Source of the DNA: Massalongia carnosa
Taxonomy: Eukaryota
Direction of reading: 5' to 3'
NCBI GenBank assembly: GCA_965645245.1
Contig: OZ287077.1
Span: 1,054,001-1,118,000, forward strand
DNA length: 64,000 bases
The notes below the pieces were generated by a model that saw nothing but the letters and a program-made list of their open reading frames with translations, was not told the origin of the DNA and did no database searches. Shown piece after piece: positions 18,791-57,981 of the stretch. The translations under genes and the position numbers were made by a program. Every line of letters starts with the position of its first letter. The first letter of the stretch is position 1.

Positions 18791-20361
18791 CTACAACCTC
18801 GCCTGCGCATTCCCTGCAGCCAGGTTTTGCGGGTTTGGCGCTAACTTCTCCGTCTCTTGCTCAATCCTCGCTCCAAGGTCCTTGTTGATGCGGAAAAACA
18901 TCTCATACGTCCGCCGCCTGACTGGCTCTTTGGCCGCACAGAGATGGCCCGCCACGTTCCCAACAAAATTCTCCTGCTGTCCCGGCGTTCGCCCGAGAAC
19001 CTCCCACAGCAAGCCCGGCTGTACGAAATCCTCGTCCGTCACGGGCAACTGCTGCGCCACGGCCGCGCCCGCCCACTTCTCGTGCTCCTGTGAGGGTTTG
19101 ACAGGCTTATAGGTCATGTTGCGGTAGGTTGAGGGGTAGTTGGGATTGGCGCCATAGTTGCCGTTGACCGCCATGATGCCGTCACGCTGGTAGGGGTTGA
19201 AGGCGCGGAGGGGTTGGTTGACGGGAATTTGTTGGTAGTTGACGCCCAGACGGTGGCGGTGGGTGTCCGGATAGGAGAAGAGGCGAGATTGGAGCACCGG
19301 GTCGGCGGAAGGCTCGACCCCTGGAACCATGTGCGAAGGGGAGAACGCGACTTGCTCGATTTCGGCAAAGTAGTTTTCGGCGTTTCGGTTGAGAACGAAT
19401 TTGCCAAACGGCCGGAGGGGGACTTCTTTTTGCGGCCATACCTTTGTGAGGTCGAAAATGTTCCAGTGAAACTTTTCGGCTTGCTCGGGGCTTAACACTT
19501 GGAGATAACACGTCCAGGACGGGTATTCGCCGGCTTGGATTGAATTAAATAGATCTTGTGTATGCCAGTCTGGGTTTTCCGACGCCATTTTGCCGGCTTC
19601 CTCATTGGTAAAGGTCTTGCTGCCCTGATCTGTTTTACAGTGAATCTGGACGTAATTGAAGGTGCCATCGGGTTTGGTGAGTTTGTACGTATGGCCCGAG
19701 TAGCCGTTTATATGACGGTACGAGTATGGGGTGCCACGATCCGAGAAAAGGTGCATGACCTGATGGGCAGATTCTTGATGGGTTGAGAGGTAGTCCCAGA
19801 ACATGGTGGCATCTTTTAGGTTGGTTTGGGGGTTGCGCTTCTGGGTGTGGATGAAGATGGGGAATTTCGAGGGGTCTCGAAGGAAGAAGATCGGGGTATT
19901 GTTGAACACCCAGTCCCAGTTGCCCTCTTCTGTGTAGAATTTTATGGAAAAGCCCCGAGGATCTCGGGCTGAGTCTGGAGATCCTTTTTCACCCCCAACG
20001 GTGGAAAAGCGAGCCACGCACTTAGTCTTCTTGCCAACCTTGGAAAGCATGTCCAGAGAGGTCTAGATGGCGTCAGTATTGACGCAGCTCCATTACTGCC
20101 TCAACATACCAGATCACTAATGTCATGTGTTACTTCAAATTCTCCATACGCTCCGGCGCCCTTGGCATGCACTACCCGTTCCGGAATGCGTTCGCGGTCG
20201 AAGTGAGCGAGTAGGTCAATCAAATGAAAGTCTTGGAGAAGCAGAGGGCCATTCTGGCCGACTCTTTGCGATGACTCTGGGTCCATGACTGGGCAACCAT
20301 TTGAGGTGGTATAAATGGGTTTCTCCTCATACCTGAGGGTGCCAGGTCCATGGTCGACCAT
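18791..20361 (-). CDS. Small-subunit monofunctional heme catalase, peroxisomal (C-terminal ARL); intron 20063-20109
   Basis: [17 protein letters not shown] (active-site His), [27 protein letters not shown] (proximal Tyr); ends with the PTS1-type tripeptide ARL. Confidence 0.96.
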
Positions 20362-20688: not shown

Positions 20689-21755
20689 ATGGCACTGCAA
20701 AGTGATCAAATGACTCGTCTAGTTGTACTGATCTCCGGCAATGGCACTAACCTGCAAGCATTAATTGATGCCTGTTCCACGGAAAGATTACCCTTCACGA
20801 AAATCGTCCGTGTAATATGTATGAGTTATTCCGTTTCTCAGCATTCAAATTGACTGACGTTGGCGTAGGTAATCGTAAGGATGCGTTTGGACTCGAGCGG
20901 GCCAAAAATGCGCAAATCCCAACAACTTATCATAATATCGTTCGATTTCGAAAGAAAAATTCCGATGATCTGGACACGGCGAAGCGCGAGTTTGACGCTG
21001 AGTGCGTTGACGTTATTTTCTCCCTTTTTCCTTCCTTCGTGCAATTGTAATGCACCTGCTAGATTTTATTTCTTGTTGATGACCCCTACCTTGTTTCATT
21101 CACGTTCCTGTTGGTCAATTGAACAAATCTCAGAAGACTCCCAACAAAAGCTATCACTAACGCCAACGCCTTCTAGACTAGCAGCTCTCATCCTTGCCGA
21201 ACAACCCCACCTCGTAGTCTGCGCGGGCTGGATGATTATTCTCTCCGGCTTGTTCGTCTCTAAAATGGACGCCGCCCAAGTTCCCGTAATAGTCAGTAGC
21301 TCCCTTTCCCCCTCCTTCTGTCTTCTCTCCACCCCCTCTTCGCCCAAAATCACTCCTCTCTAGAAAGAACTCAACTTGAACCCCAACCAAATAAATAGAA
21401 TCTCCACCCCTCCCTTCCCGGCCCATCAGCCATCAAAGGCGCCAATGCAATCCAAAGAGCCTACGAAGCATTTCAGCGTGGAGAAATTACAAAAACGGTA
21501 CGTTCTTCCCCCGAGCCATCCTCTATCTCCCAGATACCCCATGGGACTGACCCTGCCCCCTTTACGAAAAAGGGGGTCACAATCCACTACCTAATCGAAG
21601 AAGTCGACGCCGGCGACCCTATTATCTCCGCCGAAATCCCCATCCTAAAAACCGACTCTCTCGCGGACCTCGAACAGCGAATCCATTCCGTGGAATGGGG
21701 CCTAATAGTTGAGGGCACGCACTTGGCGATTGAGCGCTTGCGGTCGCCATCGTAG
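20689..21755 (+). CDS. ADE8: Phosphoribosylglycinamide formyltransferase, multi-exon
   Basis: RLVVLISGNGTNLQALID, NRKDAFGLERA, LVVCAGWM, NLHP, GVTIHYLIEEVDAGDPI and EQRIHSVEW across GT-AG introns. Confidence 0.88.
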
Positions 21756-23344
21756 CCCGTTTTGTTTTTCTAGCCAACGGACTGCGCTACTCTTCCACCC
21801 TTTACGGGGAAAAGATGTGAAGAGGTTCGCGTAAGATTTCTTCCACATGGAAGCAATTTCTCCAACGCCGAGGGAATGAAGGAAGAGGAGCCCACCATAA
21901 ACCACCTCCGTTGATCTCCCCTGAATCACCCCCCCCCAAAATAAACTCTTTCGCATCAGCAAGATCCATCCCAGCTCGCACAACGGCCCCTCTCCTCATC
22001 AGCAAGAAAACCGGAAAGTCGTCAAATAACCCTAGCTCATAAGCACAGCCATAACCTTATGCCATCCTTTTAATAACTACCACTCACCCTGTCTGTCCTG
22101 TGAGAGTAACAATAAAGAAGGGAACAGGTGATAGTTTGATTTGGCTCGGGAGGGGTTTTGGTCCTTAGTCCTCGGTTCTATCACCTTCCAAGAATAGGGG
22201 TGGCAAGGGGTAAGGTAAAGAGTAAGTAACCCATGAGTGGATGAGATTTATGGTTTTCCTTACGGTTTTCGCTGCTTCGTAATTACATATGCATAGATCG
22301 TTGACTCTACGGGTCTGTATGTGGTGATTAAACGGATGGGCTGGTGGAACGGTTGTACGAGTCACCGAAATCCCGGAATTAAATATAACAAGGAAGAACC
22401 TCTTGCGCGGCACCAGGTGCGAAAATGGGAAGGTGGGAAGATGGGGAAATGGGGGTGGTGTCGTACCTATGATTAATACTGTGATATAAGAGATCAACTC
22501 ACATAAACCTAACGCTGTATGTCAACCTATGCCTAGGATTTAGGCAAGTATGTAACCAACTCCACCTACTTCTTCTCTCCTCTCGTTCACCTCGCATCCT
22601 ATATAAAATCTCCACACCATCGCATTCCCATCCCCATCCCCATCCCGGAAGATCTTCATGCTCAACTACCTGCTTGATAAGAAGCCGAGAGAAAAGGTAA
22701 TGGTGATGGCAATGGTTACTCGGTGAACTAAGTCTCGGATGGAGAGACCAATAGAGTTGGTATAGGTATAGGTAGCTGTCCCTGGCTCCTCGGGCCCACA
22801 CCGGTTCTTTCTCGCGCCTCTCGATCGCTAAAATGGCTGGTGCGATTTTTATGCGTTGCATATTTGTTTTCGAAGCGAGTATAAATAACCCTTGTTCGTC
22901 TTCACAACCAAACCCCTCCACATTTCGTGCGCGGACTTCGTTCATAGAATTCCTGGCTACGGGCCTTAGAAAAAAGTTGAAAGATATATCGGACCTTATG
23001 TCGGCTCATCGAGGGGGAGACGAGCTAAAATATACTCTTTGACAGAAAGGTAGTTTGACCACTGCTTTCATTGACCAAATTTAGCGAGTGACTGACTGTG
23101 CAGTGCGTGTCTTCCCGCTGTTGACCTTTCGTCAGGACGTAGGGATGCATGGAGCTTAGATTTTTTTCTTAAGTCTGTCTTTGGGTGAACCGTAGAACCT
23201 GCACAGGGTAATGGCTTGGAGTTTTAGGATTTCAACCACTGGCTAAAACATACCAAGCGCCTGTCTCGAAGACCCCGTGTATCGCTACTTCGACTTAGAA
23301 TGTGAGGAGGAGAACGAGAATCGTGCTCATGCAAGGCTGGAGTC

Positions 23345-25039
23345 TCAAGTAGCAAGACTCTGGGCCGTGATGTCAACGCTCCGTATTCGTCCACACATAA
23401 CGGCATCCTCTCCCAACGCATGCCAATTCACATCATGAAATCTCACCGCCGGCTGCGACTGGCCGGACTCGTCCTGCGTCCGAGCAGGATTAACCTTAAC
23501 GGCGTCTCCGTCTCCGAAATACACCGGAGCAACGGTGACGATGATGGAGCTGACAAGAGGCGCGTGATCCGGCTGCAGCAAATCATTTATTACCATGCCG
23601 CCGCCCTCAATCATGACGCTCTTGATGCCCTCCGCAGCTAGCGCCTTCAAGATCGCTTCCCATCGGAGACGCCACCGCTTGTCAAAATCGGTGAGCCCAA
23701 GGTACTTACCGCCGTAGTATTTGAGCATTTCTAGACGGGTGGGATCGATGGCGAATCCTGGAGCGATAATCACCCATGGACCTTTTCCTTTGCCCTCCTG
23801 CACCGTTCGTAGCACCTTCGATTCAGGCGTTAGGAGCCATCTTGCGCCGGGATCTATGATGATTGGTCGAGGTTGACCCTCCCATCCTACCCCGCCAAAG
23901 CCACCCACCCCTTCTAGCCGACAGTTGAGAGCGGGATCGTCGGCAGTGGCAGTGCCGACTCCGATCAAGATGGCATCGTGCCTCGAACGTAGATAGTGAG
24001 TCATGGCTTTCGATTGAGGTCCTGATATGGCTGTTTGCCTGCCCTGTGCGATACTGAGACATGCATCCATTGATGTAGCGTAGGTGAGGGTGACATGCGG
24101 ATACCCATTTTCATCTGCCGTCATGTTTCTTGGAGGCAGGTATGGTTCAAGGAAGCCCCGAGACTCTTCTGAGTATCTAAGGCTGTTTGGAGGCGGTAGT
24201 GGTGGATTGACGACGTGTTCAAACATAAAATCATCACTACTCGGAAGATATCCGGCGGCTGTATCATCATGCCTCACGATTCCATTGCCGTGATCATATT
24301 TGTATCCTTCATGTACTCGCAGCGGTTCACGGTGGACTAGCCGCCATGCTTGCGAGGTATTTCGGATGTCGTTCCTGCTCAGATAGCGTCCCCCAGCATC
24401 ATCAAGCCTGGCTGTATTTTCGCTCATGAAGGTGAACACTGAGGCTGGCATGTAGCCCTTCATCACCTCGGATCGTGCAATATCCATTAGTACGGTGGTC
24501 CGTTTGATCCTGTCGATATGCTCGAGATCATGAGAATGCTGAGTTTGGTCCCCAACCTGCGTAATGGTGTATCCCGAATAGCCCCCGTTATACCGAATGG
24601 TCTTCACCCTCATCTGGCATGTGCCCCCTTCTCGAATATGCTTTTTCCGCGTTGGCTTGCCTTCTGGCCGTGGCTTATCCACACCTTTGGGAGTATAGGT
24701 TGGCCGCTGCAGCCGGCATGCATAGTAGTCTGTTGTGTATTTGCCCGTCTTATCAGTACCAGCTTTATGCTGCCTGACCCAGACGTTATCAACGTACGGC
24801 CAATACAGCTCGAACTCATCGACGTGAAGCTCAATTTTCTCCCTCACTTCAAAGAGGCGTCGTCGCATGAGAGCAAGATCTTTTGGGGGGTGGAGCAGTT
24901 CATTAATACTCCGCGTTGGTTGTGGAAATTGATTGCTACCCTCTTGTATTTGATCCTGTGCCTCTGCTAGTTCCGAGTTCCCGTTTGCCGGTGCATCAAT
25001 GAAATGGTCTCCAGGAATGCCCGACTGTGCATCACCCAT
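23345..25039 (-). CDS. Fusion protein: N-terminal FAR1/WRKY-GCM1-like C2H2 domain plus C-terminal RibD-C/Rib7-type pyrimidine reductase domain
   Basis: C-terminal half: PHVTLTYATSMDACLS, ISGPQSKAMTHYLRSRHDAILIGVGT..ADDPALNCR, SVMIEGGG. N-terminal half: YYAC-x32-C-x26-HSH. Single uninterrupted ORF, first ATG at 25039. Confidence 0.8.
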   Translation of the reverse strand: MGDAQSGIPGDHFIDAPANGNSELAEAQDQIQEGSNQFPQPTRSINELLHPPKDLALMRRRLFEVREKIELHVDEFELYWPYVDNVWVRQHKAGTDKTGKYTTDYYACRLQRPTYTPKGVDKPRPEGKPTRKKHIREGGTCQMRVKTIRYNGGYSGYTITQVGDQTQHSHDLEHIDRIKRTTVLMDIARSEVMKGYMPASVFTFMSENTARLDDAGGRYLSRNDIRNTSQAWRLVHREPLRVHEGYKYDHGNGIVRHDDTAAGYLPSSDDFMFEHVVNPPLPPPNSLRYSEESRGFLEPYLPPRNMTADENGYPHVTLTYATSMDACLSIAQGRQTAISGPQSKAMTHYLRSRHDAILIGVGTATADDPALNCRLEGVGGFGGVGWEGQPRPIIIDPGARWLLTPESKVLRTVQEGKGKGPWVIIAPGFAIDPTRLEMLKYYGGKYLGLTDFDKRWRLRWEAILKALAAEGIKSVMIEGGGMVINDLLQPDHAPLVSSIIVTVAPVYFGDGDAVKVNPARTQDESGQSQPAVRFHDVNWHALGEDAVMCGRIRSVDITAQSLAT

Positions 25040-25686
25040 AGTAACGATCAAGCTCTGTCTCTAGTCTAAAGGCGTATGGTATGCCGACATTTGTTGGATG
25101 AATGCCTTTCTGTTTAAAGACCACTTCCCGGAGAGGGTGGACTTTGGTATCAGAATCTCGGAGGGTGCCTGTTACCCAATCCATAATTTTGTTAGACACG
25201 GCAGCTTCATAACACAAGCTGTTGCTTATATCTACTCACAAAAAATCGAGAGAAATGACTCATGGGGTGAATATCTGTAATAGGTGAACTTAGACAGTGC
25301 ATTCTACAGTGCTTTGCTATATATAGGCCTCAAGGATCAAAAGATGAACCTTAGAGAAGGTTAGATGTATCAAAGAATGATTGGAGCATGCTAGCAATTG
25401 TGCAAATATGCCGTTTAATGACTATGATTGCTATGAACCACAATTGATTGAGGCTTCATTGTTTTTGATACCACCATTAATAAAGCTTTCCTACAAGCTA
25501 TTTCAACTTTTCCCTTGCCTATCATCGCTGAAGTGGGTATCACAAGGAACTGGAAATGTGTGCGCCCACAACGCCAAGTCTCCCCTTTTGTTCCCAAAAT
25601 AGAAAAATCCCAGTTTGACATCCAGGTTAAGGAAGTAACCGGAACGAAGAAGTTCGAAATCTCTATGTTTTGACATTCTAGAGACC

Positions 25687-27158
25687 TCAAGCTTCCTCAG
25701 GAACGTTCTCTAATTCTGCGCGGTATCCAGAACGTTTGCCTTCCTCAGTCTCGTCAGGGTCACGAATCTGCAGGTCGATCACATCAACCTGGTTCTCGTC
25801 ATCCTCGGTAGGCCTGATGGCAAGACCAAGCTGGGCTAGGTTCTTGTTCCGGCGAGGTTTGAGCTGCATCTTCTGAACGATGGGATAGTAGTAAGCTCCT
25901 TTGTCCAATCGATCCGAAGCAGAACTACTCTCCCCAAGGCCTGTCTGGCTTGTCTTTTCCTCTAGGGTAGGGTTGTGAATGGCAAGCGCGACCTCCCTAT
26001 ATTGATTCTCCGACATGATGGACTGACGTCCAGTATCGTAGGTGCGGACGTGGTTGAGTCGGAAAGAGCCTTGCCCATCCTGGCCCTTCTTTGTGGCTAA
26101 AGCAGGATCCTCCTTGTCGAGGTTGTCGATATCCAACTTCTTTTTCATGTTGGCAGCTGTCTTTTCATCGACAGGAAGGAAGAAATCGTAGCTGTACAAG
26201 GGCCCACCAGGATGAGGGATATGCGCAGGATCGGCTTCATGGGCGGCAAGCTTAGCCTTGAAATCCAGTTCTGCGTCTTTACTCAAGTCGATAGGTTGTA
26301 GCACTCCAACGTCCATGCGAGTGTCTCGGGTATCAGTAGACTGTGTAGGATTGGACGCAAATTTAATGGTCATGTAGCTGGATGAATCCGTAACTGCATC
26401 GAGATCTGGTTTGATTGCGTAGGTATCTTGCACCTTGAGCTCTGATTTCGAAGGGTGCTTGGGATTTTTCCATGCTTCGAGCTCAGCTGGGCTAGGCACG
26501 GCTCCACGGATATTCTCTTTGGTATCAGGACCAGCGTAGGCGTCTTTGGGATTAGCGATGTCAAAGCCTTTTACCGTGGCACGGAGAACATTAACAGGTT
26601 CATCTTTTGTAGTGTCTGCCTGTTTGCGTATTTTGACGGGGGCTTTAGCCGTAGCCTTAGAAGCGCTAGCGTCAATACGAGCGCGTGATTGTTCAGAGGA
26701 AATGTACTCCGTGCGGCGCAAGAAACTATAGCCGCCAGGAGCGTATTTTGGCTTCCCAAGCTCGGAAAGTGGACGCAGAAGATTCTTGTCTTTGGGATGA
26801 ACAGGCGGGATGGCAAGCGGCGCTGTGATTGCTGATTTTGGTGCGCGTTAGAATTTTCCAGGAAAAGTGTTGGTCTTGGACATGATAACTTACATCTCTC
26901 ATCACCATCAAAAATCCCCGGCATACCCACAAGATCAATCGGCATCCCCAATTCGGCATCTGCCTCAATGTTCAAAGGTTGCTCCCTAGCCAGACGGGAT
27001 GCAAAGGCGGCCGAGGTGTAGTATGATAATCCATCAATTGGGATCTCCAAAAGTTTCGGCGCTCCAGGAGGAGGGGGCATATCATTTTCATAACGAATTC
27101 GGGCGATATAGTCTTGATGATAGACACGCTCAGGACGTGTAGGTTGTGGTGCTGCCAT
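25687..27158 (-). CDS. PAF1: RNA polymerase II-associated factor Paf1; intron 26832-26893
   Basis: HQDYIARIRYENDMPPPP..PKLL, IEADAELGMPIDL, SFLRRTEYISS, KHPSK and AYYYPI motifs. Confidence 0.9.
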
Positions 27159-33854: not shown

Positions 33855-36800
33855 ATGTCTGACGTCAACGTGCCTGTAATGGGCGATCGGTCGGTAAGTT
33901 CAGTCACCAATTCCATCTAACTTCTTCTGTGCATCCAATCCTGGCTCTTGCCGTTTGTTTTGACAAGGATTCTCGGCGCGAAATTTACCTTTTTTAAAAC
34001 CACTGTTTCCTTATTCTCTACTGCACGCTCTTCTTATCCTTCATGGACGATACACTAAAAGATCCTCGATTTTTAGTCTGATCAAGAGGCTGGCCATCCC
34101 CCGGCTTCTAATACCAGACATCGCCCAAACCCTGAGCGTAGCATTGAAGCAGACGCACAGCTTCTGCTGGATTTGGCTGCCGCTGCAAGCCCGTTGTCTA
34201 CCATCAACGAAGAGAGCACAATTCAAGACTTGTGGACTGCCGAGTATACCCCAAGCAACCTAAGCCAGAGCGCAGGAGAGCTAGGCAATCCACCAAGCAC
34301 TGTAGCTTCTGCAGCTTCTCGTACAGCTCCTGTGAATCTTGTTCCCCCAAGCCCTCTTCTTCGTGCTTCTTTACTCGGTAGAGCTCGTCCAGATCATCAG
34401 CCATCTCTTCCTGCTTTCCCCTCGTTTACTCCTGTGAACACCAGAGCGTCTGTGGCAAACATCTTGCATCAAGCCACACCTGCAACCTTGGACGCATCCT
34501 CACTTGTCGCTGCACCAAAATCTCGAGCTCGTCGTGTCGTTGAAGGTACGGCTCCACTGTTCGATAGTGCATATTCAAGTACAGCTACAAGCTCCAGCTC
34601 AAATTCAAGAACTCGAGAACAGAGTGTCTACAAAACCACCGATCCAAACTTGCATAGCGCATACCCATATCTTTTCTCGTCAGGAGCTCCAGCTGAGAGT
34701 CTTCACGAACCCGCATATTCATCTTTCTCTTCATCAAAAGCTACAGTTCAGAGTGCTTACCAATCCACCGGTTCCGGCTTGCACACCGCATACTCATCTT
34801 CTCCATCGTCAAGAGCTCCAGGCGAGAGCATTGACAAGCTTACCAGTCCAAGCTCACATAGCGAACATCCATCCTTATCTTCAAACACTTCAACTCGGGG
34901 TGTTTACAGACTCACCCATTCAGGTCTTCAGAACGCGCATCAAACCACGTCTACAGGCTCTATCACATTTCCACCTTTTTCCGCATCGGATGCTCAAGCT
35001 CAGAGTGCTTATGAATCTCCCGCTTCAAGCTTGCAAAGCACGCATCTAGTCACATTTTCAGCCTCGAGCACACATCCATCTATCTCCGCTTCTAAAACTG
35101 AGGTTCAGGGTGTCTATAACCCAGCATATTCAGTGCCGAATACTACAGACCTAGCCACAGTCGCAGCTTCTAGCACACAGGTGGCTATTCCTGCTTCGAA
35201 AGCTCGATCTTCTCGTGTTGTCGAACCCAGCGATCGAGTATTACGAAAGAAGCAAGTACCATATCACCGACTTGCCGATATGGCTCCAGCAAGTAAAGCT
35301 TCAAACAAGCGAAAAGCTATCATCACTAAGGATCAGCCTGCGAAGAAAGCTCGCACTGAGGTCTTAGCTACATCTTCCACTGCTATTACTACAGCAGGTC
35401 CATCTACAACACGAGCTCAGTTGAAGAATCAGCCTGCATCTGGCAAATTTAAGAAAGCTACGGCACCAGCTGCAAAGAGAACTCAACTTACTACCGAAGC
35501 TAGCCCATCTAAAGCTGATACCGATAACACTCCTACGTCTTCAGTTGATCCTACCACCACCTCTACAAACCCCACTTCTTCAACATCCATTGTCGCCACC
35601 ACGGAAGTTAAGAAACCTAACAATCCCAGTAGCGAAGCTGAAGCATCGTCGAGTCGACCAAACAAACGTAAAGCTAAATCCACCGAAGTTATAGCTAGTA
35701 AGAAAGCTCGCGTTACTGCTGAAGCTGCATCAAGTGCGAGGAGAGGCGCAACTCCTAATGCAACTATGAAAGGCAGGACTTCGGTTGCGACCACTGCTAA
35801 AGGCAGAAGTGCAGCTACAAGTAGAGCTACTAAGCCTAGAGGCAGGACTGTAGCTACACGTGGAACTACTACTACCGCCACTACGGCAACGCACCCTACG
35901 CCTAAGAATGAAGATGAAGATCAGGAAGAAAGTCCGACTCCCCCACCGCCCCCTTCAAAGAAACCTCGCGTTGCGAAGCAACCCAAGGAGCCTAAGCGAA
36001 AAACTGTCATTAATCAAGTTCCAACACAGAAGCTAGATGTGTTTGTTTGGGGTGAAGGTGCATTAGGTGAGCTAGGACTCGGAAACTTAAATAACGCGAT
36101 CAACGTCAAGCGCCCACGACTTCACCCGCACCTTTCAGCGAGCGAGGTTGGTGTAGTTCAAATCGCTACCGGGGGGATGCACTCAGCTGCTTTGACACAT
36201 GACAACTTGATCCTTACCTGGGGAGTTAACGACCAAGGAGCTTTAGGAAGAGATACAACCTGGACCCCGCCTCCGAGAACTGCACAAGATAATGATACTG
36301 ACGATGACGACGACGATAATCTTGGCTTTAACCCGCTTGAATGCATTCCGGTTGCAATTCCGCGTGAGAGCTTTCCGGAGGGCGTCGTATTTACGCAGGT
36401 TGCTTGCGGAGACAGCATGACTTTCGCCGTTACAGATGATGGAGATGTATATGGATGGGGTACTTTCCGAGTAAGATCTTGTCATTTCGAGTTCTTGTCC
36501 AAGATGCAATGCTGATCATTTGTGTCCAGTCCAACGAAGGCATCATGGGATTTACAGAAGAAGTGCTAATTCAAGAAACTCCCATCAAAATGTCTAATCT
36601 TAGCAAGATCACCCAAGTCACCTGCGGCGCAAATCACGTTTGTGCTTTGAGGCAAAACGGCGAAGTCTACATTTGGGGTTCAGGCGAGCAAAACCAACTC
36701 GGCCATCGTATGCTTGAACGAAAGCGCTATGATGCGTTGATCCCGTCAAGGCTTCGTATCAAAAAGCCTATTAGACTTATCGGCTGCGGGCATGATCACT

Positions 36801-37366
36801 CCTTCGCAGTCGACCGTGACAACAACACTTGGACCTGGGGCCTCAACAACTTCGGTGAAACCTCTATTAGAGAGGGCGCCGGCGGCGACCGAGCCGTCGT
36901 CTTTAACCCGGTCAAAGTTCCTTCGCTCAACCTCCTCAACGACAGCATTACCACCATCACCGGTGGTGCCCATCACTCTGTCGCCACTACTGCCAACGGG
37001 GTGTGCTTGGTTTGGGGCCGATTGGACGGCAAGCAAATGGGTTTGGACATCGCCTCCCTTCCAAAAGATAATATCATCAAGGACGCTAAGGACCATCCAC
37101 GGATCCTCATCAAGCCAACTGCCTTACCAGCGGACTCGATAGGGGCCGCAACCATGGCAGCAGTTGGCACAGACCATACGATCTGTATCAATGCCGCCGG
37201 CGAGGCCTTTAGTTGGGGCTTCAATGTCAACTATCAGTGCGGGCAAGGCACTGATACAGACATTGAGGCCCCAATTCGGATCAACAATACTGCGGTTCGC
37301 AACCGCGCGTTGATCTGGGCCGGAGCCGGCAGCCAATTCTCGGTGGCGACGGCATTGGCGGCTTGA
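33855..37366 (+). CDS. RCC1-family (Ran GEF, Pim1/Srm1-like) beta-propeller protein with a very long Ser/Thr-rich N-terminal extension; intron 36471-36529; 5' exon tentative
   Basis: RCC1 repeats VFVWGEGALGELGLG, GGMHSAALT..TWGVNDQGALGR, VYGWGTFR|SNEG, WGSGEQNQLG, WGLNNFGET, WGFNVNYQCGQG, WAGAGSQFS. Start 33855 is inferred from an ATG followed by a GTAAGT donor; an alternative start is ATG 35280. Confidence 0.82.
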
Positions 37367-37670: not shown

Positions 37671-38289
37671 TTCATGTGTGCATTTCCCTTTGTTGTTCTC
37701 TTTTGTCGGGCTGGATTGGGTTGCGGGGTGCGTTTTGATTCAATTTCCCGAGTTTCTCTTTTTCTGTGAGTCTTCTTCTCGGCTGTGAAGGAGGCGGGCC
37801 CCTACTGGACATCTACTGGGCAAAGCCTGTAAATAGCATTTTTCTTGCCTGCTCATCTCTCTGTCCACCTCGTCTTATGGGGGATGTGCTCTTCTCCTCG
37901 TTCTGCGGAAATCTGGTAGTTTGAGCCTTTTTAATTGAATACACAGGACTAGCCTCTTCTCCGAGGATATCGTGACTTTGCTACGCAGATTTAAGCCATC
38001 TACTTAAGGTGTATGAAAGATTGCTGAAGATCATTGTAGACAAGATGTTTTGTTTCTTTGTGTGGATACAATGTGCTCTCGTTTCGTTTCTCCACGAAGG
38101 CCCGTTTATTATAGAATGAATGTAGGATGAGAGGCATAGCATGAGTAGGAAAAGCTACAGGTTTAGTAAGAATATTCCCTTGAGCATTGAAAAGTGTTCT
38201 GAAAATTGGGTTTCTCTCTTTTTGTTTCTGTTGTAGATCTGTTTTCTAGGAGTTGTGGTTTTTCTAACATGGTATAGCAATCGTGGTGT

Positions 38290-38448
38290 TTGTTGTGTTG
38301 AGGTTGGAATCCAAATTGTTGTGTTGAGGTTGGAATCCAAATTGTTGTGTTGAGGTTGGAATCCAAATTGTTGTGTTGAGGTTGGAATCCAAATTGTTGT
38401 GTTGAGGTTGGAATCCAAATTGTTGTGTTGAGGTTGGAATCCAAATTG
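38290..38448. repeat. Perfect minisatellite, 6 x 26 bp TTGTTGTGTTGAGGTTGGAATCCAAA
   Basis: Units start at 38290, 38316, 38342, 38368, 38394 and 38420; identical, with no spacers. Confidence 0.97.
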
Positions 38449-39796
38449 AGGGTCGACGGGTCGTGACTGGACTGAGGGTGCATGGTATGGGCATAGCTTA
38501 ATAGGGTTAAAAGGGTTTAAAAAGGGAACGTGAGAAGTGAAAAGAGAAAAGAAGGCGAATAATTAGTTGATTAATCTACTTGACGATCGATTTTCTGCCG
38601 GGAAAGAGCGGGTGGGGTTGAAGTATACAAAAAAGGGGATGAGGCAGGAAAAAAAAAACCGATGTGATGTGTAGATTAGAGAGCCAAGTTATCTAAAGAA
38701 ACCAAATAAGAGAAAAATATGATGAGTGAGATGTTGTAATGATCGAGATAGATTGATGTGAAGAGCAAGAGAGGTTAAGAAATATTGGAGAAGAGGGGAG
38801 GGGAGGAATGCGAACGAGAAGGGGGGAAGGGAGGGGAGAGAAACGAAGAAAATGGGGGGCTGAGCTGAAGGTAGCTTGATTTAGTCAGGTAAGGGAAAAG
38901 GTACGTATAGATATGTGAATGGATTGAAAGAGAGTATTCAATAAATGAATCGATTAATAGTCAAAGGATATGAAGGAGAGAATGATAGACAAGGAATAGC
39001 TCACGAAAGATGACATGATTCGTTTCTGCTTTGTTTGGGGGAGGGAGAGAAGGGATTGTTTTAAAAATGAGAGGAGAAATATGCAATCAATTCTTGAACT
39101 CCTCGCTGACCATCGTATCGAGTATGCAACAGCACCATATCAACAGAATCCGAACCGGGAACGGGAACGAATGGAAACGAAACGGATTCCTCAAGATCGC
39201 AAAAAAAAAGTGGGGGTTGCTACTCTTATTTCCTTACTTCAGCAGGGAAATAGAATAGTGATAACGATGATAAAGGCCGGGGGAAAAAACAGATTATCGA
39301 GACGAGAATGAGTTGATATGTTCAGTAAACCTCGGTGAGAATGTGAGGCATACAGAAATTGATGAAAATACTGGAAATGGGACTTTGAAGAGGGAGCGAG
39401 GCGAAAAAAGTGGAGAGAGACTGGAAGGATAGAGGCGTGGAATATAGGTATGTAGAAAGATGAATGGAATGATGAAAGCTCAAGGTGGCATAGCAAGGGA
39501 GATGAAGTAGATGAAGTAAGTAGGTAGCACGACGAAAAATTATAAAACGAAATCAAGGAGATGGAAGATGTTAATGGTTATTTATATTGTTGGATATAGG
39601 CAAGTTGAATCTCTTTCAAACCTCTACACAACTCAAGGGCTCTGCCACTCGACGCGTTTTGCAACGTTTCGTTCCTACCCACGCCATGCTGCCCGAAAGG
39701 AAAACCTCAAAACTCCCTTCTAGCCATATCCAATCCTCCAACATAGCCACCCAGCCAACCATCCGGTACCATGGACCCCTCACCAAAGCGCCCCTA

Positions 39797-41444
39797 TTAC
39801 CGGTATCCCAACCTCCTCTCCGGCGACCGCTGATTCAGCAATATTTTATCTCCGCCTCTTCCATCATCATAACTCGGACGGCTAGTATCCCTCTGGTTCT
39901 GGTAGGGTGTGTAGAATTGGTCTGCATACATCAGTGGCTCCTGCTGCAGCTGGGGTTGAGGGGCAACATGGTGTTGGGGAGGCGGGGGTGGGTGCATGTA
40001 CTGTGAAGGGTGGGGTGGGGGAACTCGGTTACGGAAGACTGAGAATGTGAGGTTGGAGATGGCGAAGCAGCCAAATATTAGGATAAAGGAGGTTATCTAT
40101 CAATACGCCGTTAGCCTGTAAGGTCTGCCGGAGGGGAAGGTAGAAATTAGTATCTGGGTGTAGGAGAAGCTTAGGGTGACAGAAGAACATGTAGAGAAGG
40201 GGGTTTCAGCGGTGATCATAATGCGACAACTACACAGCATTGAAAATAGCCGTCACGAGAAAGGGGCAGAGGATTAAGGTTGACTTACCATCGTTTTGGC
40301 AGAAATCGGCTCAATGAAACTGTTCAAAATCTCGGCGAAGGTGTGCGCGCTGACCCTAGCCCTACCCACTTTACTCGGATCCTGCTGCATGCACTTCTCC
40401 CAGTTATTACACACCGTCTCCATAGCCGGCACACGTGTCTCCCTGTCGCACCGGTTCTCCCTGTACTCCCTGGTGCAGACCGCCATTTCAGCTAGAGTCT
40501 CCGAAGCCACTTCTCGTGATTTTAAATCAACATCGGAGCGGATAGTGGACCAGAAGCTGTAGACCATGTACATCAAGCAGCCAACGAGGAAGACATTGAG
40601 CAGGAATTGGGCGTAGTAGGAAAGGACAGACGGGAGGTTGGGGTGTGTTTCCATGAAGTGGAAGATGGATGGGATGGCGCCCATCTCTTTGACCGTTTCT
40701 TTGGGCTGACTAAACGTATGATTCTCCTTTTTTGAAGATTCTCCTTCCCGGCTACTGGGACGAGATTTCGAATCTGAGTCTGAGTCGTAACTCATGCCTC
40801 GGCGGTGAATCAGGCGAACACCCTTCTCCACACCGCGGCGGCGGTTTTTTTGTACGCGGTGGACCAAGGCGTCGGTATAAAACTTTCGGGGAATTTCTCC
40901 TCGCCCAGAAACATTGTAGGAACCGAGCAAAGGAGCCTTCTTGTCCGTTTTGTTGGATGCAAAGAGGATGAGCGAGCCCTCGGCTTTGGTAAGGCCACTT
41001 CTTTTTGGAAGCTCGGGGGTATCTTCGTTATCAGCATTCCCGGGCGAGGATTCAATCTCGGGACCAGACGAGAAATTCATCTCGATTGGCCTCTGGGGCG
41101 TTGTGAAGGAATGCTTGGCTGGCGGCTTCATGGATGGCGTTGAAGGGAAGAGGAAAGTTTGAGAGGCTGGTTCGCGCAAAGCGGGTAGAGATGGCTTGGT
41201 AGGAGACTGAAGTTCATTGAAAGGACCTAAGGGTCAGCTCGCATGTCAGCTGCTGATGCATGAGCTCATTGATATGATTTCACACTTCTGCGGGGAGCAG
41301 ACACTTACGTTTATGACCGGCAAAACCGTTTAGATGCTGATGGTGTTGGGCTGATGCTTGGATAAAGGGGGAGTCTGATGCTGCAGGACCGTGACCTTGT
41401 TGCCATTGGAAGTCCATGGGACTTTCATTTGTGCGTATATCCAT
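39797..41444 (-). CDS. BRL1: Nuclear envelope protein Brl1/Brr6 family, multi-exon
   Basis: N-terminal ESPMDFQW motif; HPNLPSVLSYYAQFLLNVFLV..TM..IRSDVD; four-Cys luminal loop C..EY.ENRC....RVPAMETVC..WEKCM..DP..VGRARVSA.TFAEILNSFIEPIS; second TM exon, ending SPERRLGYR*. Confidence 0.85.
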
Positions 41445-53718: not shown

Positions 53719-55321
53719 GTAACCAGGTCTTTTCCACCCACCACCACCCAAAAACCCCCCTTTTGCATCCCCAAACGGCCCCACACCGAACCTGACCCTA
53801 AATGCTTACCATCTCCCTCCATCTTTCCAAAAGTGACTACCTACCTATATCTCCCGCCCCCCCCCCCCCGCCAACACACATACATATATATACCGGAATA
53901 TAGGGGGGGGGAACCAGCCAGGCTAGATGAAAACAAGGGAAATCCTTTCCCGCCCCCCTTCCTGGACGGGGTTAGAATACGCTGGGCTAAGGAGGGTCTT
54001 GCATGAGAACTTATGATACCCACCCCATTTAACGAAGAAACGAGGATTATGTTTAACCGAAGCAGCAAATCTTCCACCGGAAATCTTCGCTCAGGGGAGG
54101 ATCTAAAGCGATGGTGGAAGGAAACGCGCAACACCAAACAGCGCTATGTCTTCTAGTTGGTTAATCCCGCACCCATCTCTTAATTTGTAGCTTTCCCCAA
54201 CCCTTTCCGTGATCGCTTCTAGGAAAAATTATCCGCTCCGCCAGCGTTGGGTGGACTGGATGCCTTGCCGAGGCGTTTTTGACGTCTTCGTGAAGTGAGG
54301 CTGAATGCTTGCTTGGAAGTCAGGCAGTCCTTTTTGGGAGAAGATCTTGCGTGAAAAGCGATAGATCGTTTTGCTCGCAATGGACATGGTGCTGGGAGCT
54401 TTACTGGAAACGTTGAATGTGCATCGATCGGCCTGCTGGGTAATTTTCTGTTTCATGTGTATATATTTTAAGAAATTGGAAGGTGGGTGGCTAGGTATGG
54501 GGGTATATATTTAGGAACGGGAAGAGATGGTGGTTATGGCGGTGGTATGGTGATATCGGAAAGATTTGTGTTAAGGTGGAACAAAGGACGTATATTGTTA
54601 ATGTCCAAAGCTAGATCCCTAGAAATGGAGGCATTATATGACGGATTGCAACAAAGACACTGAACAAACCTCCCCCCCCCTTTCATCCCAAAAATAAAGA
54701 AGACTCCAAAAGGCCAAAAGCAACCGTCAAGATCATCTTAAGTTGTAATAACCTGCTTGACGTGATTCTTGGACTTGCCCTTTTATGTCGTAAAATGAGT
54801 TTGAAATGCTAGCGAACAGATAGCAAGCTCTCCCTTAGCTTTTGAAACTATAATTCGTAGAAATTGCATCCAGTGTAGAACACAGGAGAGATTCTCCATA
54901 AAAGAGACCATGGTATACTTGAATTTATACCGCTATCGCGCGGAAGGGTTTCAACCATAGTGTAAATTTTTAAAAGGACTTGGAGCAGAGGGTTTCGTTA
55001 CTCGGTTAATGGGCTATACCTCAAGTCGGATTGAGAGGTGGTCGTAGGTTTCAACGATTGTGAATCCTAACGCCAAGTCCCAACGCCAGTACGCGATTTC
55101 CCCTTTGGTATGCGAGTTCCAGTGATCGGAGCGATTGGGTAGGCTCACCGTAGCCCTCGAGTTGGCTGTATTTCCATTTTTTTAAGTGTAACTTAGAGCT
55201 GCCGCAAGTCGAGCTGGGAATTTTTTCTACCCATGTGTTGTTTAATTTAATAACGGGGTTCAACGCGGATTCCAACGTTCATCAATCGCGAACACAGCTG
55301 CTTGGCCCTAAAATATAAATA

Positions 55322-57981
55322 GAGTACGGATACGTGGACACCCCTTTGGTTACCTGGACACCCCCTGAGGTTACCTGGACACCCCCCAGTGATACACGGA
55401 CACCCCCTTCCTAGAATAGGTAAGAATCAAGGGTTCAGCCCCCTCACTTACCCACTTCGGGGTAAGCTCCCGGGCGCATATCGGGGAAATTTTTTCCTTC
55501 ACCTTTTGAAAGTGGTCGGGAATTTCTGAAACGAAGTCGATTGGCACTGGCTTTGCAAATCAGACTCTGATTCTAGAAACTAAGCCTCATTTGGTCTAAG
55601 TAATGATGATAACCTCTTCATCTCCGCTTGCTGTCGCTGTCCCCCCCCCTGTCGCCGTCCCCGCCTCCGAGTCATTTGTAGTCAGCCTATCTGCCAATCC
55701 CCTTGTTATAACCCCTCCTCTAGCCCTACCTCCCCGTCCCCGTCCCCATCCCGATCCCCGTCCCCGTCTGCCTCGTCCACGACCAGGTGCCGGGTCCGCT
55801 CGATGAACGGCTGATTGATCTGCATCCGGGTCCACCCGCTCGAAAAGGGAAGGATCACGATTAGTAGATGCCTCGAATGCTTGCTGTCTTCTATTCAAAT
55901 TCTCCGCACCTGGAGGTCTGCCCCTTGGTCTAGCAACTTCGGGTGCCTGAACCCGAAGATAAGGATTATCAATAGCCACACGGGCTGTCCTATCAAACCT
56001 CCAATGAGGATGAATATCTTCCAATAGCAACTTTCCCCCCCCATCCCCATACAATCGTTCCTGAATCTTATGACTGCACGGAAGACCCATGGTTAAACTG
56101 AACGTTCCAGTACAGGCCGGAATAGCTGTTGGTTGACCAACCAAACGTTCGTATTGAGGCATTATCTTTCTCAAAGCATAGGAAGTGACGTATGGACTGA
56201 TTTCCTGAAAGATAGGTTTGCGAATATCCATAGGTAGTCGCACCTTCGCTTCATCAAGACGAATCAGATGATTGTGAAGTTCATTGATCAATAGAAGATT
56301 GATTCCGTCCACCACCGTCTTAAGATCTCTAGATGATGACCCTAGCTGTCGCTTAAGTACTGCATGCCCACCTTCACCTCGAGAGGTAGTGGTGGTTTCG
56401 AAATGAGTAATCATACTGGTATAGCACTTGACAAAACGATGTCGGAAGGGTATGTAGATGTCGTTTAGATATTCCACACATTGATCCTGACCCTGATACT
56501 GAATCCTGAATCGCTCCCATGACTCCAAAAACTCTGGTTCTGACGAGGCATAAACGACCGTTTTCCAGTCAGCGAAGAAGGAGTCCCACGCCTCTTTGGT
56601 ATCGAAGCTCTTCTTGCAATTGGTCAGGACGTTATTATTGATGTGCCATAAGCAAAGCAGATGATTGGTTGCGGGGAAAACATCCTCAATTCCAGCTATC
56701 AGACTCTTTTCCATGTCCGTGACTATGACGATCGGGTTAGGAAGCATCATCCCATCATACATACCTCGCAATTGCTGCAACATCCAGGTATAATCAGACG
56801 TGGCTTCCTTGGCCATGAAGCAAAATGCCACATAGAAGTTGGTATGTAGGGCGGTTTGACCACTGATGATCAATAAGGGCATCTTATATCTGTTGGTTTT
56901 GTAAGTGGCGTCCATCACCAACACCTCGTAATTCGTCTTCAATAGTCGTTGAGAACAGCCCTTAATAAAGAATAAATGAGTTATTCTATCTAGATCATCC
57001 TTTTGCATCTGATACGTCCAATCTCCTTGATCCAGCTCTCGGATTAATGCCTGAACCGGAGTCAATGGGCCGAGTGTCTCGCGACGAAGCTGTGCTTTGA
57101 CGTTGTAGATATCCCGAGGTTTGAATAAGGGATTGATGATGTAGGGATTTTCTGGATCGTCAAAATTGATTCCCGTCGTCGGATCAGCAACACGAAGACT
57201 AGATAAAATCTTGAAAGGGGCTGTTTGCACGATCAGAGCTCGGGAAATCTCACTTTTAACCTCTTTCGTCATCGCCAATTTCCTCAACGCTGGATGAGCA
57301 CCAGCGAGGGTAGAAGCATGATTATGAGTCGATTTGACCACCTCCAAAAACCAGATACCACTGTCGTTTTCTCGTGTGGCCACACAAGAGAAAGGGCATT
57401 CAATTCGTCGGCTACCCGTATGTCGCCGATCCTGACCTCTTGGTCCGTCGGTTTTTCTTCCTCGATCACATATCAGCCATGCCTTTCTTGTTACCTTAAG
57501 TTTCGACTTCTTGGTTCGACCCAAAACGACTGCGTATCCTTGACGACCAGCATGCTCATTGACTCGTAGAACCAGGTCTTCCAGACTTTCAAAACTTTGT
57601 CCATCCTCGGGGGGTGCAAGTCCGCCAGGGGGTAGAGGGCCAGGTGGTCGGGGTGGAGTAGCTGGTTCATCTTCGAGGGGTGCAAATCCGTCAGGAGGTG
57701 GGGCAGGAGGTGGGGGGTCAGGAGATGGTGCAGACATGATAAAGTGTCAAAATGTTGGTGATGATGATGTTTACGAAGTGCCAAAATGTTGGTGTTTACG
57801 GTTGAAAAAAAAATTCCCGAGGTGCACCCTCGGGAGCTTACCCCGAAGTGGGTAAGTGAGGGGGCTGAACCCTTGATTCTTACCTATTCTAGGAAGGGGG
57901 TGTCCGTGTATCACTGGGGGGTGTCCAGGTAACCTCAGGGGGTGTCCAGGTAGCCAAAGGGGTGTCCACGTATCCGTACTC
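55322..57981 (-). mobile_element. Intact Mutator-like element (MULE), 2660 bp, 151-bp TIRs, 8-bp TSD TATAAATA
   Basis: TIRs 55322-55472 and 57831-57981 begin GAGTACGGATACGTGGACACC and differ at one base; TATAAATA at 55314-55321 and 57982-57989. Confidence 0.95.
55596..57737 (-). CDS. MULE DDE transposase, 713 aa
   Basis: FAR1-like C-x23-C-x23-HNH domain; VLVMDATYKTNRYKMPL (D1), IVTDMEKSL (D2), LLCLWHI (CxxH), TTSRGEGGH (E); C..MGLPCSH; AT-hook PRGRP; RG-rich tail. Confidence 0.93.
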   Translation of the reverse strand: MSAPSPDPPPPAPPPDGFAPLEDEPATPPRPPGPLPPGGLAPPEDGQSFESLEDLVLRVNEHAGRQGYAVVLGRTKKSKLKVTRKAWLICDRGRKTDGPRGQDRRHTGSRRIECPFSCVATRENDSGIWFLEVVKSTHNHASTLAGAHPALRKLAMTKEVKSEISRALIVQTAPFKILSSLRVADPTTGINFDDPENPYIINPLFKPRDIYNVKAQLRRETLGPLTPVQALIRELDQGDWTYQMQKDDLDRITHLFFIKGCSQRLLKTNYEVLVMDATYKTNRYKMPLLIISGQTALHTNFYVAFCFMAKEATSDYTWMLQQLRGMYDGMMLPNPIVIVTDMEKSLIAGIEDVFPATNHLLCLWHINNNVLTNCKKSFDTKEAWDSFFADWKTVVYASSEPEFLESWERFRIQYQGQDQCVEYLNDIYIPFRHRFVKCYTSMITHFETTTTSRGEGGHAVLKRQLGSSSRDLKTVVDGINLLLINELHNHLIRLDEAKVRLPMDIRKPIFQEISPYVTSYALRKIMPQYERLVGQPTAIPACTGTFSLTMGLPCSHKIQERLYGDGGGKLLLEDIHPHWRFDRTARVAIDNPYLRVQAPEVARPRGRPPGAENLNRRQQAFEASTNRDPSLFERVDPDADQSAVHRADPAPGRGRGRRGRGSGWGRGRGGRARGGVITRGLADRLTTNDSEAGTATGGGTATASGDEEVIIIT

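Follow-up and report, generated by a model that had tools for sequence, protein, structure and literature searches.

Based on the sequence, evolutionary and structure-prediction evidence presented here, we describe in Massalongia carnosa a gene whose product, judged from its sequence, is the Rib7 reductase of a lichen-forming fungus joined to an N-terminal module that is domesticated from a Mutator-like (MULE) transposase and that purifying selection conserves as strongly as the enzyme. The gene lies within a 64,000-nucleotide stretch of DNA (positions 1,054,001 to 1,118,000 of contig OZ287077.1, assembly GCA_965645245.1), referred to below as the window. The 564-residue protein is composed, in this order, of an N-tail, a WRKY-GCM1 and helical module, a linker and the Rib7 reductase. 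A preliminary description of this DNA, made from the letters alone, had proposed that a domesticated MULE-type module is joined here to a Rib7-type reductase, and this proposal is now supported by four independent lines: profile homology to MULE proteins, structural matches to WRKY domains, conservation of the Cys/Cys/His/His residues, and purifying selection on a gene that is accompanied neither by terminal inverted repeats (TIRs) nor by a transposase domain. As to function, we lean towards a trigger enzyme as the most likely of the explanations weighed for the Rib7-WRKY-GCM1 fusion; in such a protein, the state of the reductase would be read out through a DNA-binding module.

The enzyme half

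The Pfam family RibD_C (PF01872) matches residues 314-547 of the fusion protein (E 9.9e-28; 97.7 bits against a cutoff of 24.1), and a hidden Markov model (HMM) of stand-alone fungal Rib7 spans residues 284-553. The PDB matches of this half include the fungal Rib7 9l1f (E 1.1e-38) and the yeast enzyme 4ha7 (E 2.4e-30), in agreement with the C-terminal RibD_C/Rib7-type reductase recognised at the outset. In the fungal riboflavin pathway, Rib7 carries out step two, in which 2,5-diamino-6-ribosylamino-4(3H)-pyrimidinone 5'-phosphate (DARPP) is reduced with NADPH.

When read from an alignment to yeast Rib7 and from the chain numbering, the key residues are in register: Thr35 of Saccharomyces cerevisiae Rib7 (ScRIB7) corresponds to Thr319 of the fusion protein, Gly76-x-Gly78 to Gly360-Val-Gly362, Thr79 to Thr363, Asp83 to Asp367, and Glu180-Gly181-Gly182 to Glu478-Gly479-Gly480. 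Thr35, Thr79, Asp83, Glu180 and Gly182 of ScRIB7 are required for activity or substrate choice, and Thr35 determines the preference for DARPP (PMC3631187). Thr363, Asp367, Glu478, Gly479 and Gly480 are invariant in 21/21 aligned orthologues. Gly362 varies among them (Arg, Lys, Asn, Ser, Thr), and the solved 9l1f enzyme has a Lys at this place. Since every residue needed in yeast Rib7 is present and the catalytic residues are invariant in the orthologues, the enzyme half looks catalytically active. The fused protein is probably the sole Rib7 of the cell.

The C-terminal 270 residues align across the whole fold with S. cerevisiae Rib7 (4ha7/4ha9) and with 9l1f, and the NADPH-binding and catalytic residues and the DARPP-specific Thr are common to all of them. 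Unlike the fusion protein, these two enzymes have only 243-251 residues and lack the N-terminal module. Yeast Rib7 is also without an 11-residue Gly-rich loop that the fusion protein shares with the stand-alone Rib7 of Pezizomycotina. This loop, located at the modelled interface between the two halves, was considered as a fusion-specific feature and rejected, because the stand-alone Pezizomycotina enzymes have it as well.

A module shared with transposases and with several enzymes

Residues 1-313 gave no Pfam match in the scan that found RibD_C. They contain a conserved N-domain of about 210 residues (44-255) without a Pfam family, in which the motif Cys108-x32-Cys141-x26-His168-Ser-His170 is followed by GYMPASVF (residues 195-202) and LSRNDIRN (220-227); these motifs had been quoted exactly, and at the right places, in the preliminary description. 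The N-domain is basic, with an isoelectric point (pI) of 9.5, and the Lys/Arg-rich insert between the two Cys reaches a pI of 11.0.

A profile made from 14 N-domain fragments picks out, from 1.84 billion cluster representatives, 556 at E <=1e-3, 226 of them at <=1e-10 and 21 at <=1e-30. The best 150 of these 556 were scanned against Pfam at E <=0.001. RibD_C is the partner domain in 13 of the 150, and in 15 the module is followed by a MULE and/or ZSWIM1-3 RNaseH-like catalytic domain. The remaining partners are GFA (3), glutathione S-transferase (2), isochorismatase (1; P0207, profile E 2.7e-17), HD (1) and the FAD-dependent oxidoreductase family DAO (1), with C2H2-finger models below cutoff in 2 further members; 112 members, many of them of 170-400 aa, have no Pfam family. 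The enzyme-fused members outside Rib7 are P0143, P0160, P0195, P0204, P0256, P0207, P0219 and P0267. The profile links the N-domain to MULE proteins at E 1e-13 to 1e-28. As far as these profile matches tell, one branch of MULE transposases carries the module N-terminally and several small-molecule enzymes are joined to it, and we regard the module for this reason as a family of its own. Among the RibD_C-fused representatives the profile match reaches positions 202-217, and for most others it ends near 185-199; the hairpin residues 239-255 are invariant in the 21 orthologues.

The Cys/Cys/His/His pattern noticed in the single sequence has proved to be a conserved one. Cys108, Cys141, His168 and His170 are invariant in 21/21 aligned orthologues and are kept in about 95% of the distant representatives: in an HMM alignment of 150 representatives and the query, counting non-gap rows only, they are found in 139/145, 142/146, 141/143 and 136/143 rows, respectively. 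The other conserved positions of this alignment are Trp80, Trp87 (Trp/Tyr/Phe), Arg109, Arg136, Asp176, Lys179 and Asn227, the last being kept in 121/125 non-gap rows.

The label FAR1/WRKY-GCM1 that the domain had first been given stands for its superfamily part and falls for its family part. The N-domain of the window is unmatched by Pfam FAR1 (PF03101) even at E <=10, no member of the family reaches that model, and the N-domain profile gave only chance-level rows against PDB chain sequences and against Pfam. By these searches the module is not a member of the FAR1 family, and "FAR1" is a superfamily-level label. The ESM Atlas gave leads only, in the form of fungal clusters, one of them with GCM on 12% of its members and ZSWIM3_N/FAR1 at 0.85.

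Comparison with the MULE of the window

A MULE transposase is also encoded in the window itself, by an uninterrupted 713-aa ORF at 55596-57737 (-). It matches Pfam MULE at 93.6 bits and FAR1 at E 1.1e-4 (23.2 bits, under the cutoff of 28.1), and it is flanked by 184-nt TIRs that are 93% complementary (55312-55495 and 57808-57991). The interval 55312-57991 looks like an intact MULE transposon and may be a recently active element. Its TIRs contain GGGGGTGTCC-type sub-repeats.

The likeness between the N-domain and this transposase, on which the domestication proposal had been drawn, holds for the layout and the register; the resemblance of the two proteins reaches the level of motifs only. The transposase has the arrangement Cys90-x23-Cys114-x23-His138-Asn-His. 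BLASTP of the N-terminal 314 residues against it found nothing better than E 0.78. The comparison of the family profile with the single MULE sequence by hhalign (E 0.0075, probability 5%) is not significant, nor is the search of all six-frame segments of the window with a diverse family HMM, in which the MULE came second at E 0.15. Both the hhalign and the HMM alignments are in register, placing Cys on Cys twice, HSH on HNH and RNDIRN on PRDIYN. The MULE of the window and the MULE-carrying members of the family have a colinear catalytic core and a SWIM-like motif in common (E 0.003-0.008), and on these alignments they belong to one transposase superfamily, as branches that are far apart and have the same layout. 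The significant transposase link of the N-domain is, by the profile evidence, to a MULE subfamily different from that of the window.

Predicted structure of the N-domain

Given 121 diverse sequences, AlphaFold2 modelled the N-domain with a mean predicted local distance difference test (pLDDT) of 94.3 and a predicted template-modelling score (pTM) of 0.85. The model has two helices and a short strand, the helix 73-82 and the strands 87-89, 101-108, 144-150 and 156-162; its C-terminal part consists of five helices between residues 172 and 235 and a hairpin at 246-256.

In a search of 48,161 PDB representatives, which was independent of Foldseek, only two chains reached Z >=5, and both of them, at ranks 1 and 2, are WRKY domains: 6j4e_B (Z 5.7, root-mean-square deviation (rmsd) 2.6, 60/61 residues) and 8k31 (Z 5.5, rmsd 3.5, 75/79). 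They are followed by 1wj2 (Z 4.5), AFT2 4lmg (Z 4.4) and GCM 1odh (Z 4.4). A second look with VIA-align, covering the 999 best chains of Foldseek, listed nine entries at Z >=5.0, again all WRKY domains; among them are 5w3x_D (Z 7.1, rmsd 2.4, 73/73) and 2ayd (Z 6.7, rmsd 3.1, 76/76), with AFT2-DNA at Z 4.7 and GCM at Z 4.4. The Foldseek probabilities are 0.97 for 6j4e_B, 0.96 for 5w3x_D, 0.91 for 7z0r_B and 0.85 for 2ayd, against 0.47 for AFT2-DNA. The comparison with WRKY and GCM structures that had been suggested from the sequence has turned out in favour of this fold, with WRKY domains as the best matches (Z up to 7.1) and AFT2 and GCM lower. Model residues 131-195, which form the helical part, weakly matched regions with which transposases bind DNA, namely in TnsB (Z 4.8), the SETMAR DNA-binding domain on TIR DNA (Z 4.5) and Mos1 (Z 4.3).

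According to the main text of PMC1702500, the WRKY-GCM1 fold has four strands and a Cys/Cys/His-x-His(Cys) site, MULE-associated branches of it have been defined, and these branches have a helix that precedes strand 1 and an insert that separates the two Cys. The module of the fusion protein has the four strands, the ligand pattern, a 32-residue insert, and the helix 73-82 ahead of the strand 87-89. The model supports the view that the N-domain is a WRKY-GCM1 zinc finger of the MULE-associated branch followed by a helical part.

Orthologues, constraint and history of the fusion

A search with residues 1-313 retrieved 214 proteins at E <=0.001 among 1076 candidates. The best 120 of these 214 matches have 437-653 aa, and 120/120 carry RibD_C; wherever an organism is named among these 120, it is a lichen-forming fungus. 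Lineages were checked for two of them, Mycoblastus (Lecanoromycetidae) and Circinaria (Ostropomycetidae), both of which belong to the Lecanoromycetes. The closest match is 99% identical to the protein of the window, which assigns this DNA to a lichen mycobiont; in the alignment the orthologues share the length and the start of the window protein. The mean identity to 20 orthologues is 0.75 in the N-domain and 0.71 in Rib7, with 0.22 in the N-tail and 0.19 in the linker. Long stretches of the N-domain, including the exposed first strands and the basic insert, are invariant or nearly so in the alignment of 21 proteins. Related metagenome loci numbered 42, ten of which (L029, L032-L034 and L037-L042) were left out as short contigs or weak matches; an uninterrupted ORF of 533-700 aa with the same layout is present in 32/32 of the loci examined.

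Ratios of nonsynonymous to synonymous substitution (dN/dS, omega) were calculated by the Nei-Gojobori method for 25 distinct coding sequences (300 pairs), most pairs being saturated at synonymous sites. The median omega is 0.072 for the N-domain (22 usable pairs) and 0.056 for Rib7 (14 pairs), as against 0.70 for the N-tail (103 pairs) and 0.68 for the linker (77 pairs). In the cleanest pair, L012/L013, the N-domain has dN 0.027, dS 0.44 and omega 0.061, and Rib7 has omega 0.079. Since the values of the two parts are similarly low, the N-domain appears to be under a constraint as tight as that on the enzyme; a dN/dS comparison was among the checks first suggested. The gene has none of the marks of a transposon: a transposase catalytic domain (MULE, ZSWIM RNaseH or DDE) was not found in the fusion protein by the Pfam scan, and TIRs were not found around the gene, where the longest inverted matches have 14-16 nt (21500-27000 scanned). 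With neither an RNaseH-like DDE domain nor TIRs, it is not an autonomous MULE transposon, and the early remark that both are missing was accurate.

The fused form extends beyond the lichen fungi. Lithohypha guttulata (Chaetothyriales) holds a fused representative, a search with its N-domain returned 60 proteins of which 60/60 have RibD_C, and the carriers in Chaetothyriales include Exophiala, Fonsecaea, Cladophialophora, Capronia, Rhinocladiella, Cyphellophora, Phialophora and Knufia. More than 180 orthologues have the same architecture. An orthologue search across Pezizomycotina had been suggested at the outset; the fusion does not extend throughout that group, the named carriers being Lecanoromycetes and Chaetothyriales.

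Short relatives of residues 305-564 gave 1003 matches, the best 120 of which were listed. The three closest of these 120 (67-70% identity) lie on contigs of 2-4 kb; two start inside the Rib7 fold, the third falls with the fused proteins in the Rib7 tree, and all three are read as fragments of fused genes. The remainder, at 50-58% identity, are stand-alone Rib7 of 265-302 aa; their sources are Eurotiales (Aspergillus, Penicillium and others), Dothideomycetes, Leotiomycetes and Sordariomycetes. Within the best 120 of the 1003 short matches, no row that names an organism assigns a stand-alone Rib7 to Lecanoromycetes or Chaetothyriales. In public records the fused proteins appear as reductase or as hypothetical. 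The fused form is the Rib7 annotated in Lecanoromycetes and Chaetothyriales, and other Pezizomycotina have a stand-alone Rib7.

In an unrooted maximum-likelihood tree of Rib7 (156 rows, every fourth lichen protein kept), 110/112 short proteins are on one side of a branch with a Shimodaira-Hasegawa-like approximate likelihood ratio test (SH-aLRT) support of 95, and on the other side are 44/44 fused proteins together with two proteins from short contigs (301 and 308 aa). In an unrooted FastTree phylogeny of the N-domain (143 rows), 30/30 Rib7-fused members and one 364-aa fragment form a single clade with support 99, which splits into a lichen and a Chaetothyriales sub-clade. Because the trees of both halves place the fused proteins together, they point to a Rib7 fusion that arose once. 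The 15 MULE-linked rows need 14 changes in the N-domain tree and are therefore scattered over it; the association with a transposase looks like the older state.

Proposed function and alternative explanations

In the trigger-enzyme reading, the N-module would bind DNA sequence-specifically through the first strands of the finger (Trp87-Val-Arg-Gln-His) and the helical part. DNA binding is to be expected because relatives of the module sit where transposases bind their ends, because its fold is a DNA-binding fold, because the first strand retains the aromatic and basic signature Trp87-Val-Arg89, and because the domain as a whole (pI 9.5), and above all its insert (pI 11.0), is basic. This Lys/Arg-rich insert could also be a nuclear signal. 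As yeast Rib7 is a homodimer (PMC3631187), a dimer of the fusion protein would present two DNA-binding modules and might act as a two-headed binder. Occupancy of the reductase by substrate or NADPH would alter the presentation of the docked N-module to DNA, and flavin-precursor or redox status would in this way be coupled to transcription.

A contact between the two halves is supported by a complex test, run without alignments built in this analysis, in which they scored 0.65 against 0.00 for the best control. The mark of 0.65 is reached by 51/78 solved complexes and 2/108 mismatched pairs, and for eukaryotes by 39/65 solved and 2/126 unrelated pairs. The runs show >=92% contact agreement with a partner pLDDT >=75, and the predicted contact sets residues 53-75 and 152-154 of the module against Rib7 residues 382-387, 410-420 and 441-443. 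The test supports docking of the N-module on the enzyme half. Such an intramolecular contact is what a ligand-sensing coupling requires, and it fits a purely enzyme-regulating module too.

The most serious alternative builds on this last point. The module may be derived from a transposon and have the WRKY-GCM1 fold, and yet no longer bind DNA, acting instead, docked on the reductase, as an intramolecular domain for regulation, oligomerisation or localisation. The supported contact between module and Rib7 (0.65 vs 0.00) is what this explanation would predict; the hairpin 239-255 is specific to Rib7-fused members, and a module joined to many unrelated enzymes could be a general enzyme-control module. 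We nevertheless hold it to be unlikely. Members at the N-terminus of MULE transposases make up 15/150 of the family, and in that position the module is the DNA-binding part, according to the main text of PMC1702500. In addition, hardly any variation is seen in the exposed first strands or the basic insert of a domain of pI 9.5, the predicted interface avoids the Trp87-Arg89 strand, and contact with the enzyme is expected by the sensor model also.

Several observations weigh against the trigger-enzyme reading or against the steps that lead to it, the first being that the predicted docking could equally mean that the module regulates the enzyme without binding DNA. The structural evidence for the fold is limited in several ways: with only 14 close orthologues AlphaFold2 returned a poor model (pLDDT 49.7), Foldseek against the PDB gave no row at E <=0.001 (the best WRKY row is at E 0.074), and the structural Z scores of at most 7.1 lie under the caution level of 8 of the tool. 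We still give credit to these low Z scores because the targets are tiny, are covered end to end and rank first, and because they agree with the ligand pattern and the transposase homology. The N-domain is without a Pfam family, and when 121 members were scanned at E <=1, FAR1 was touched in 3 (best 0.02) and AFT in 4 (best 0.043), all below threshold. [quoted passage not shown] For this reason our claim is limited to the superfamily and its MULE-associated branch, and no sub-family is named. Finally, the Rib7 tree sets the stand-alone Eurotiales proteins apart from the fused Chaetothyriales ones, contrary to the species tree. The grouping of the fused Chaetothyriales Rib7 with the fused lichen Rib7 may hint at an old paralogue with differential loss, at gene transfer, which would have taken place between lichen fungi and rock-inhabiting black yeasts, or at a rate artefact.

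A different possibility, which we consider improbable, is that the protein is purely a transcription factor in which the Rib7-like half does no more than sense a ligand, riboflavin being made by a separate stand-alone Rib7. Exactly such a role was proposed for an isochorismatase fusion in the main text of PMC1702500, and an old paralogue would look like the fused Rib7, which a branch of support 95 splits from 110/112 stand-alone proteins. Against a sensor that has given up catalysis speak the presence and invariance of the residues needed for ScRIB7 activity and the low omega of the Rib7 half (0.056). Nor do the named rows of the best 120/1003 short matches include a stand-alone protein from Lecanoromycetes or Chaetothyriales, and it is to the fused protein that public annotations apply the Rib7 name.

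That the N-terminal likeness is a chance Cys/His pattern, an artefact of the gene model or a recent transposon insertion would agree with the empty BLASTP comparison with the window MULE and with the lack of a Pfam or PDB sequence match, and can be dismissed in view of the uninterrupted ORF here and in 32/32 related loci, the more than 180 orthologues of the same architecture, an omega of about 0.06, a confident model, MULE profile links at E 1e-13 to 1e-28 and the absence of TIRs.

Layout of the gene and its surroundings

The gene is a single intronless ORF, as it had been described, and its parts are listed in Table 1.

Table 1. Coordinates of the fusion gene and of its parts within the window
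Feature	Coordinates	Strand	Remarks
Fusion gene, whole ORF	23345..25039	-	Intronless, ATG to stop, 564 aa; stop codon 23345-23347
N-tail, residues 1-43	24911..25039	-	Poor conservation
WRKY-GCM1-type zinc finger (predicted), residues 65-177	24509..24847	-	Helix, then four strands; 32-residue basic insert between Cys
Putative zinc-finger ligand codons	Cys108 24716-24718; Cys141 24617-24619; His168 24536-24538; His170 24530-24532	-	
Helical sub-domain (predicted), residues 178-238	24326..24508	-	Five helices, helix-turn-helix-like; includes GYMPASVF and RNDIRN
Beta-hairpin RVHEGYKYDHGNG (predicted), residues 239-255	24275..24325	-	Seen in Rib7-fused members
Variable linker, residues 256-283	24191..24274	-	
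Rib7 reductase (RibD_C fold), residues 284-553	23381..24190	-	2,5-diamino-6-ribosylamino-4(3H)-pyrimidinone 5'-phosphate reductase

Directly upstream of the fusion gene and in the same orientation lies Paf1 (25687-27158, -), which is split in two ORFs and presumably contains an intron; a catalase gene (18791-20050, -) is located downstream. Paf1 is the upstream neighbour in 22/42 related metagenome loci, and the catalase is seen in 5. In the Chaetothyriales-like loci, Paf1 is not a neighbour of the fusion gene.

An upstream element with the core TAGACCGCACA, often with CTTG before it and C.CTA after it, precedes the start codon by about 275-317 bases, on the same strand, in 7/9 distinct lichen-type upstream regions (L001, L010, L012, L014, L015, L017 and L022). 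In a k-mer screen, 10-mers of this element occur in 5/9 regions, compared with a shuffle maximum of 3. The element is absent upstream of the gene in the window and in L018, and because of its absence there it is uninformative on autoregulation of the window gene.

Elsewhere in the window, an RCC1-repeat gene at 35280-37366 (+) is represented by two ORFs that overlap and differ in frame (35280-36515 and 36455-37366); an intron within a single gene is the most likely explanation. GC skew in 2-kb windows is strong and of opposite sign at 34001-36000 (-0.22) and at 38001-40000 (+0.32).

Relation to known systems and significance

Transcription factors domesticated from MULE transposases are known in Aft1/Aft2 (Rcs1) of yeasts and in FHY3/FAR1 of plants, the latter retaining a dead transposase core. 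They resemble the fusion protein in that a transposase-derived WRKY-GCM1 zinc finger serves them as DNA-binding domain; the AFT2-DNA structure 4lmg matches the N-domain model at Z 4.4-4.7 over 69 residues, and the AFT and FAR1 Pfam families are weakly touched by 4 and 3 family members, the sequence similarity being below every Pfam threshold. Unlike the fusion protein, they have no enzyme half. In bacteria, trigger enzymes such as PutA, BirA and NadR combine a metabolic enzyme with a DNA-binding domain, and substrate occupancy controls transcription. The proposed logic is all that the fusion protein would share with them; domain of life and folds differ, there is no homology, and the analogy is functional.

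The nearest precedent is the work of Babu, Iyer, Balaji and Aravind (2006; PMC1702500), whose main text describes fungal WRKY-GCM1 domains originating from MULEs, both stand-alone and fused to isochorismatase, the enzyme being proposed as a sensor. These proteins have the same kind of module and the same MULE origin, the isochorismatase-fused P0207 falls in the profile family described here, and the insert between the Cys, the helix before the first strand, the genes without a transposase, single-copy there and probably so here, and the idea of an enzyme half sensing a small molecule are all common to both. The partner in the present case differs from that of the proteins described there: it is Rib7, a biosynthetic enzyme that is essential, that has its catalytic residues intact and that seems to have taken the place of the stand-alone gene. 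The fusion protein also lacks the strand-4 Trp that is typical of their insert family. The words "riboflavin", "reductase" and "RibD" are absent from the main text of PMC1702500, and a link of the module to Rib7 or riboflavin was not found in the searchable literature. As far as that main text goes, a transposon-derived DNA-binding domain fused to an enzyme has been known since the isochorismatase case of 2006; new to the literature searched are Rib7 as the partner, the fact that an essential stand-alone enzyme seems to have been replaced in two fungal lineages, and the wide range of enzyme partners.

A wider and more tentative idea, which we think possible and somewhat doubtful, is that fungi contain unrecognised eukaryotic one-component regulators, in which a MULE-derived module would have been captured repeatedly by Rib7, GFA, glutathione S-transferase, isochorismatase, D-amino-acid-oxidase-like and HD proteins, the Rib7 version having replaced the ordinary enzyme in lichen fungi and rock-inhabiting black yeasts, where it would read riboflavin flux or NADPH status onto DNA. 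The module, for which there is no Pfam model, merits a family model of its own. What gives the present case its interest is that the fusion involves an essential and apparently active vitamin enzyme and is conserved across one whole class of lichen fungi and one black-yeast order. If DNA binding is true, this would be a rare eukaryotic enzyme acting as its own transcriptional sensor, and it would open a way to study how filamentous ascomycetes regulate riboflavin synthesis. With at least 556 representatives and six or more different enzyme partners, the family points to a principle that is general and open to testing, and the Chaetothyriales carriers include genetically tractable species.

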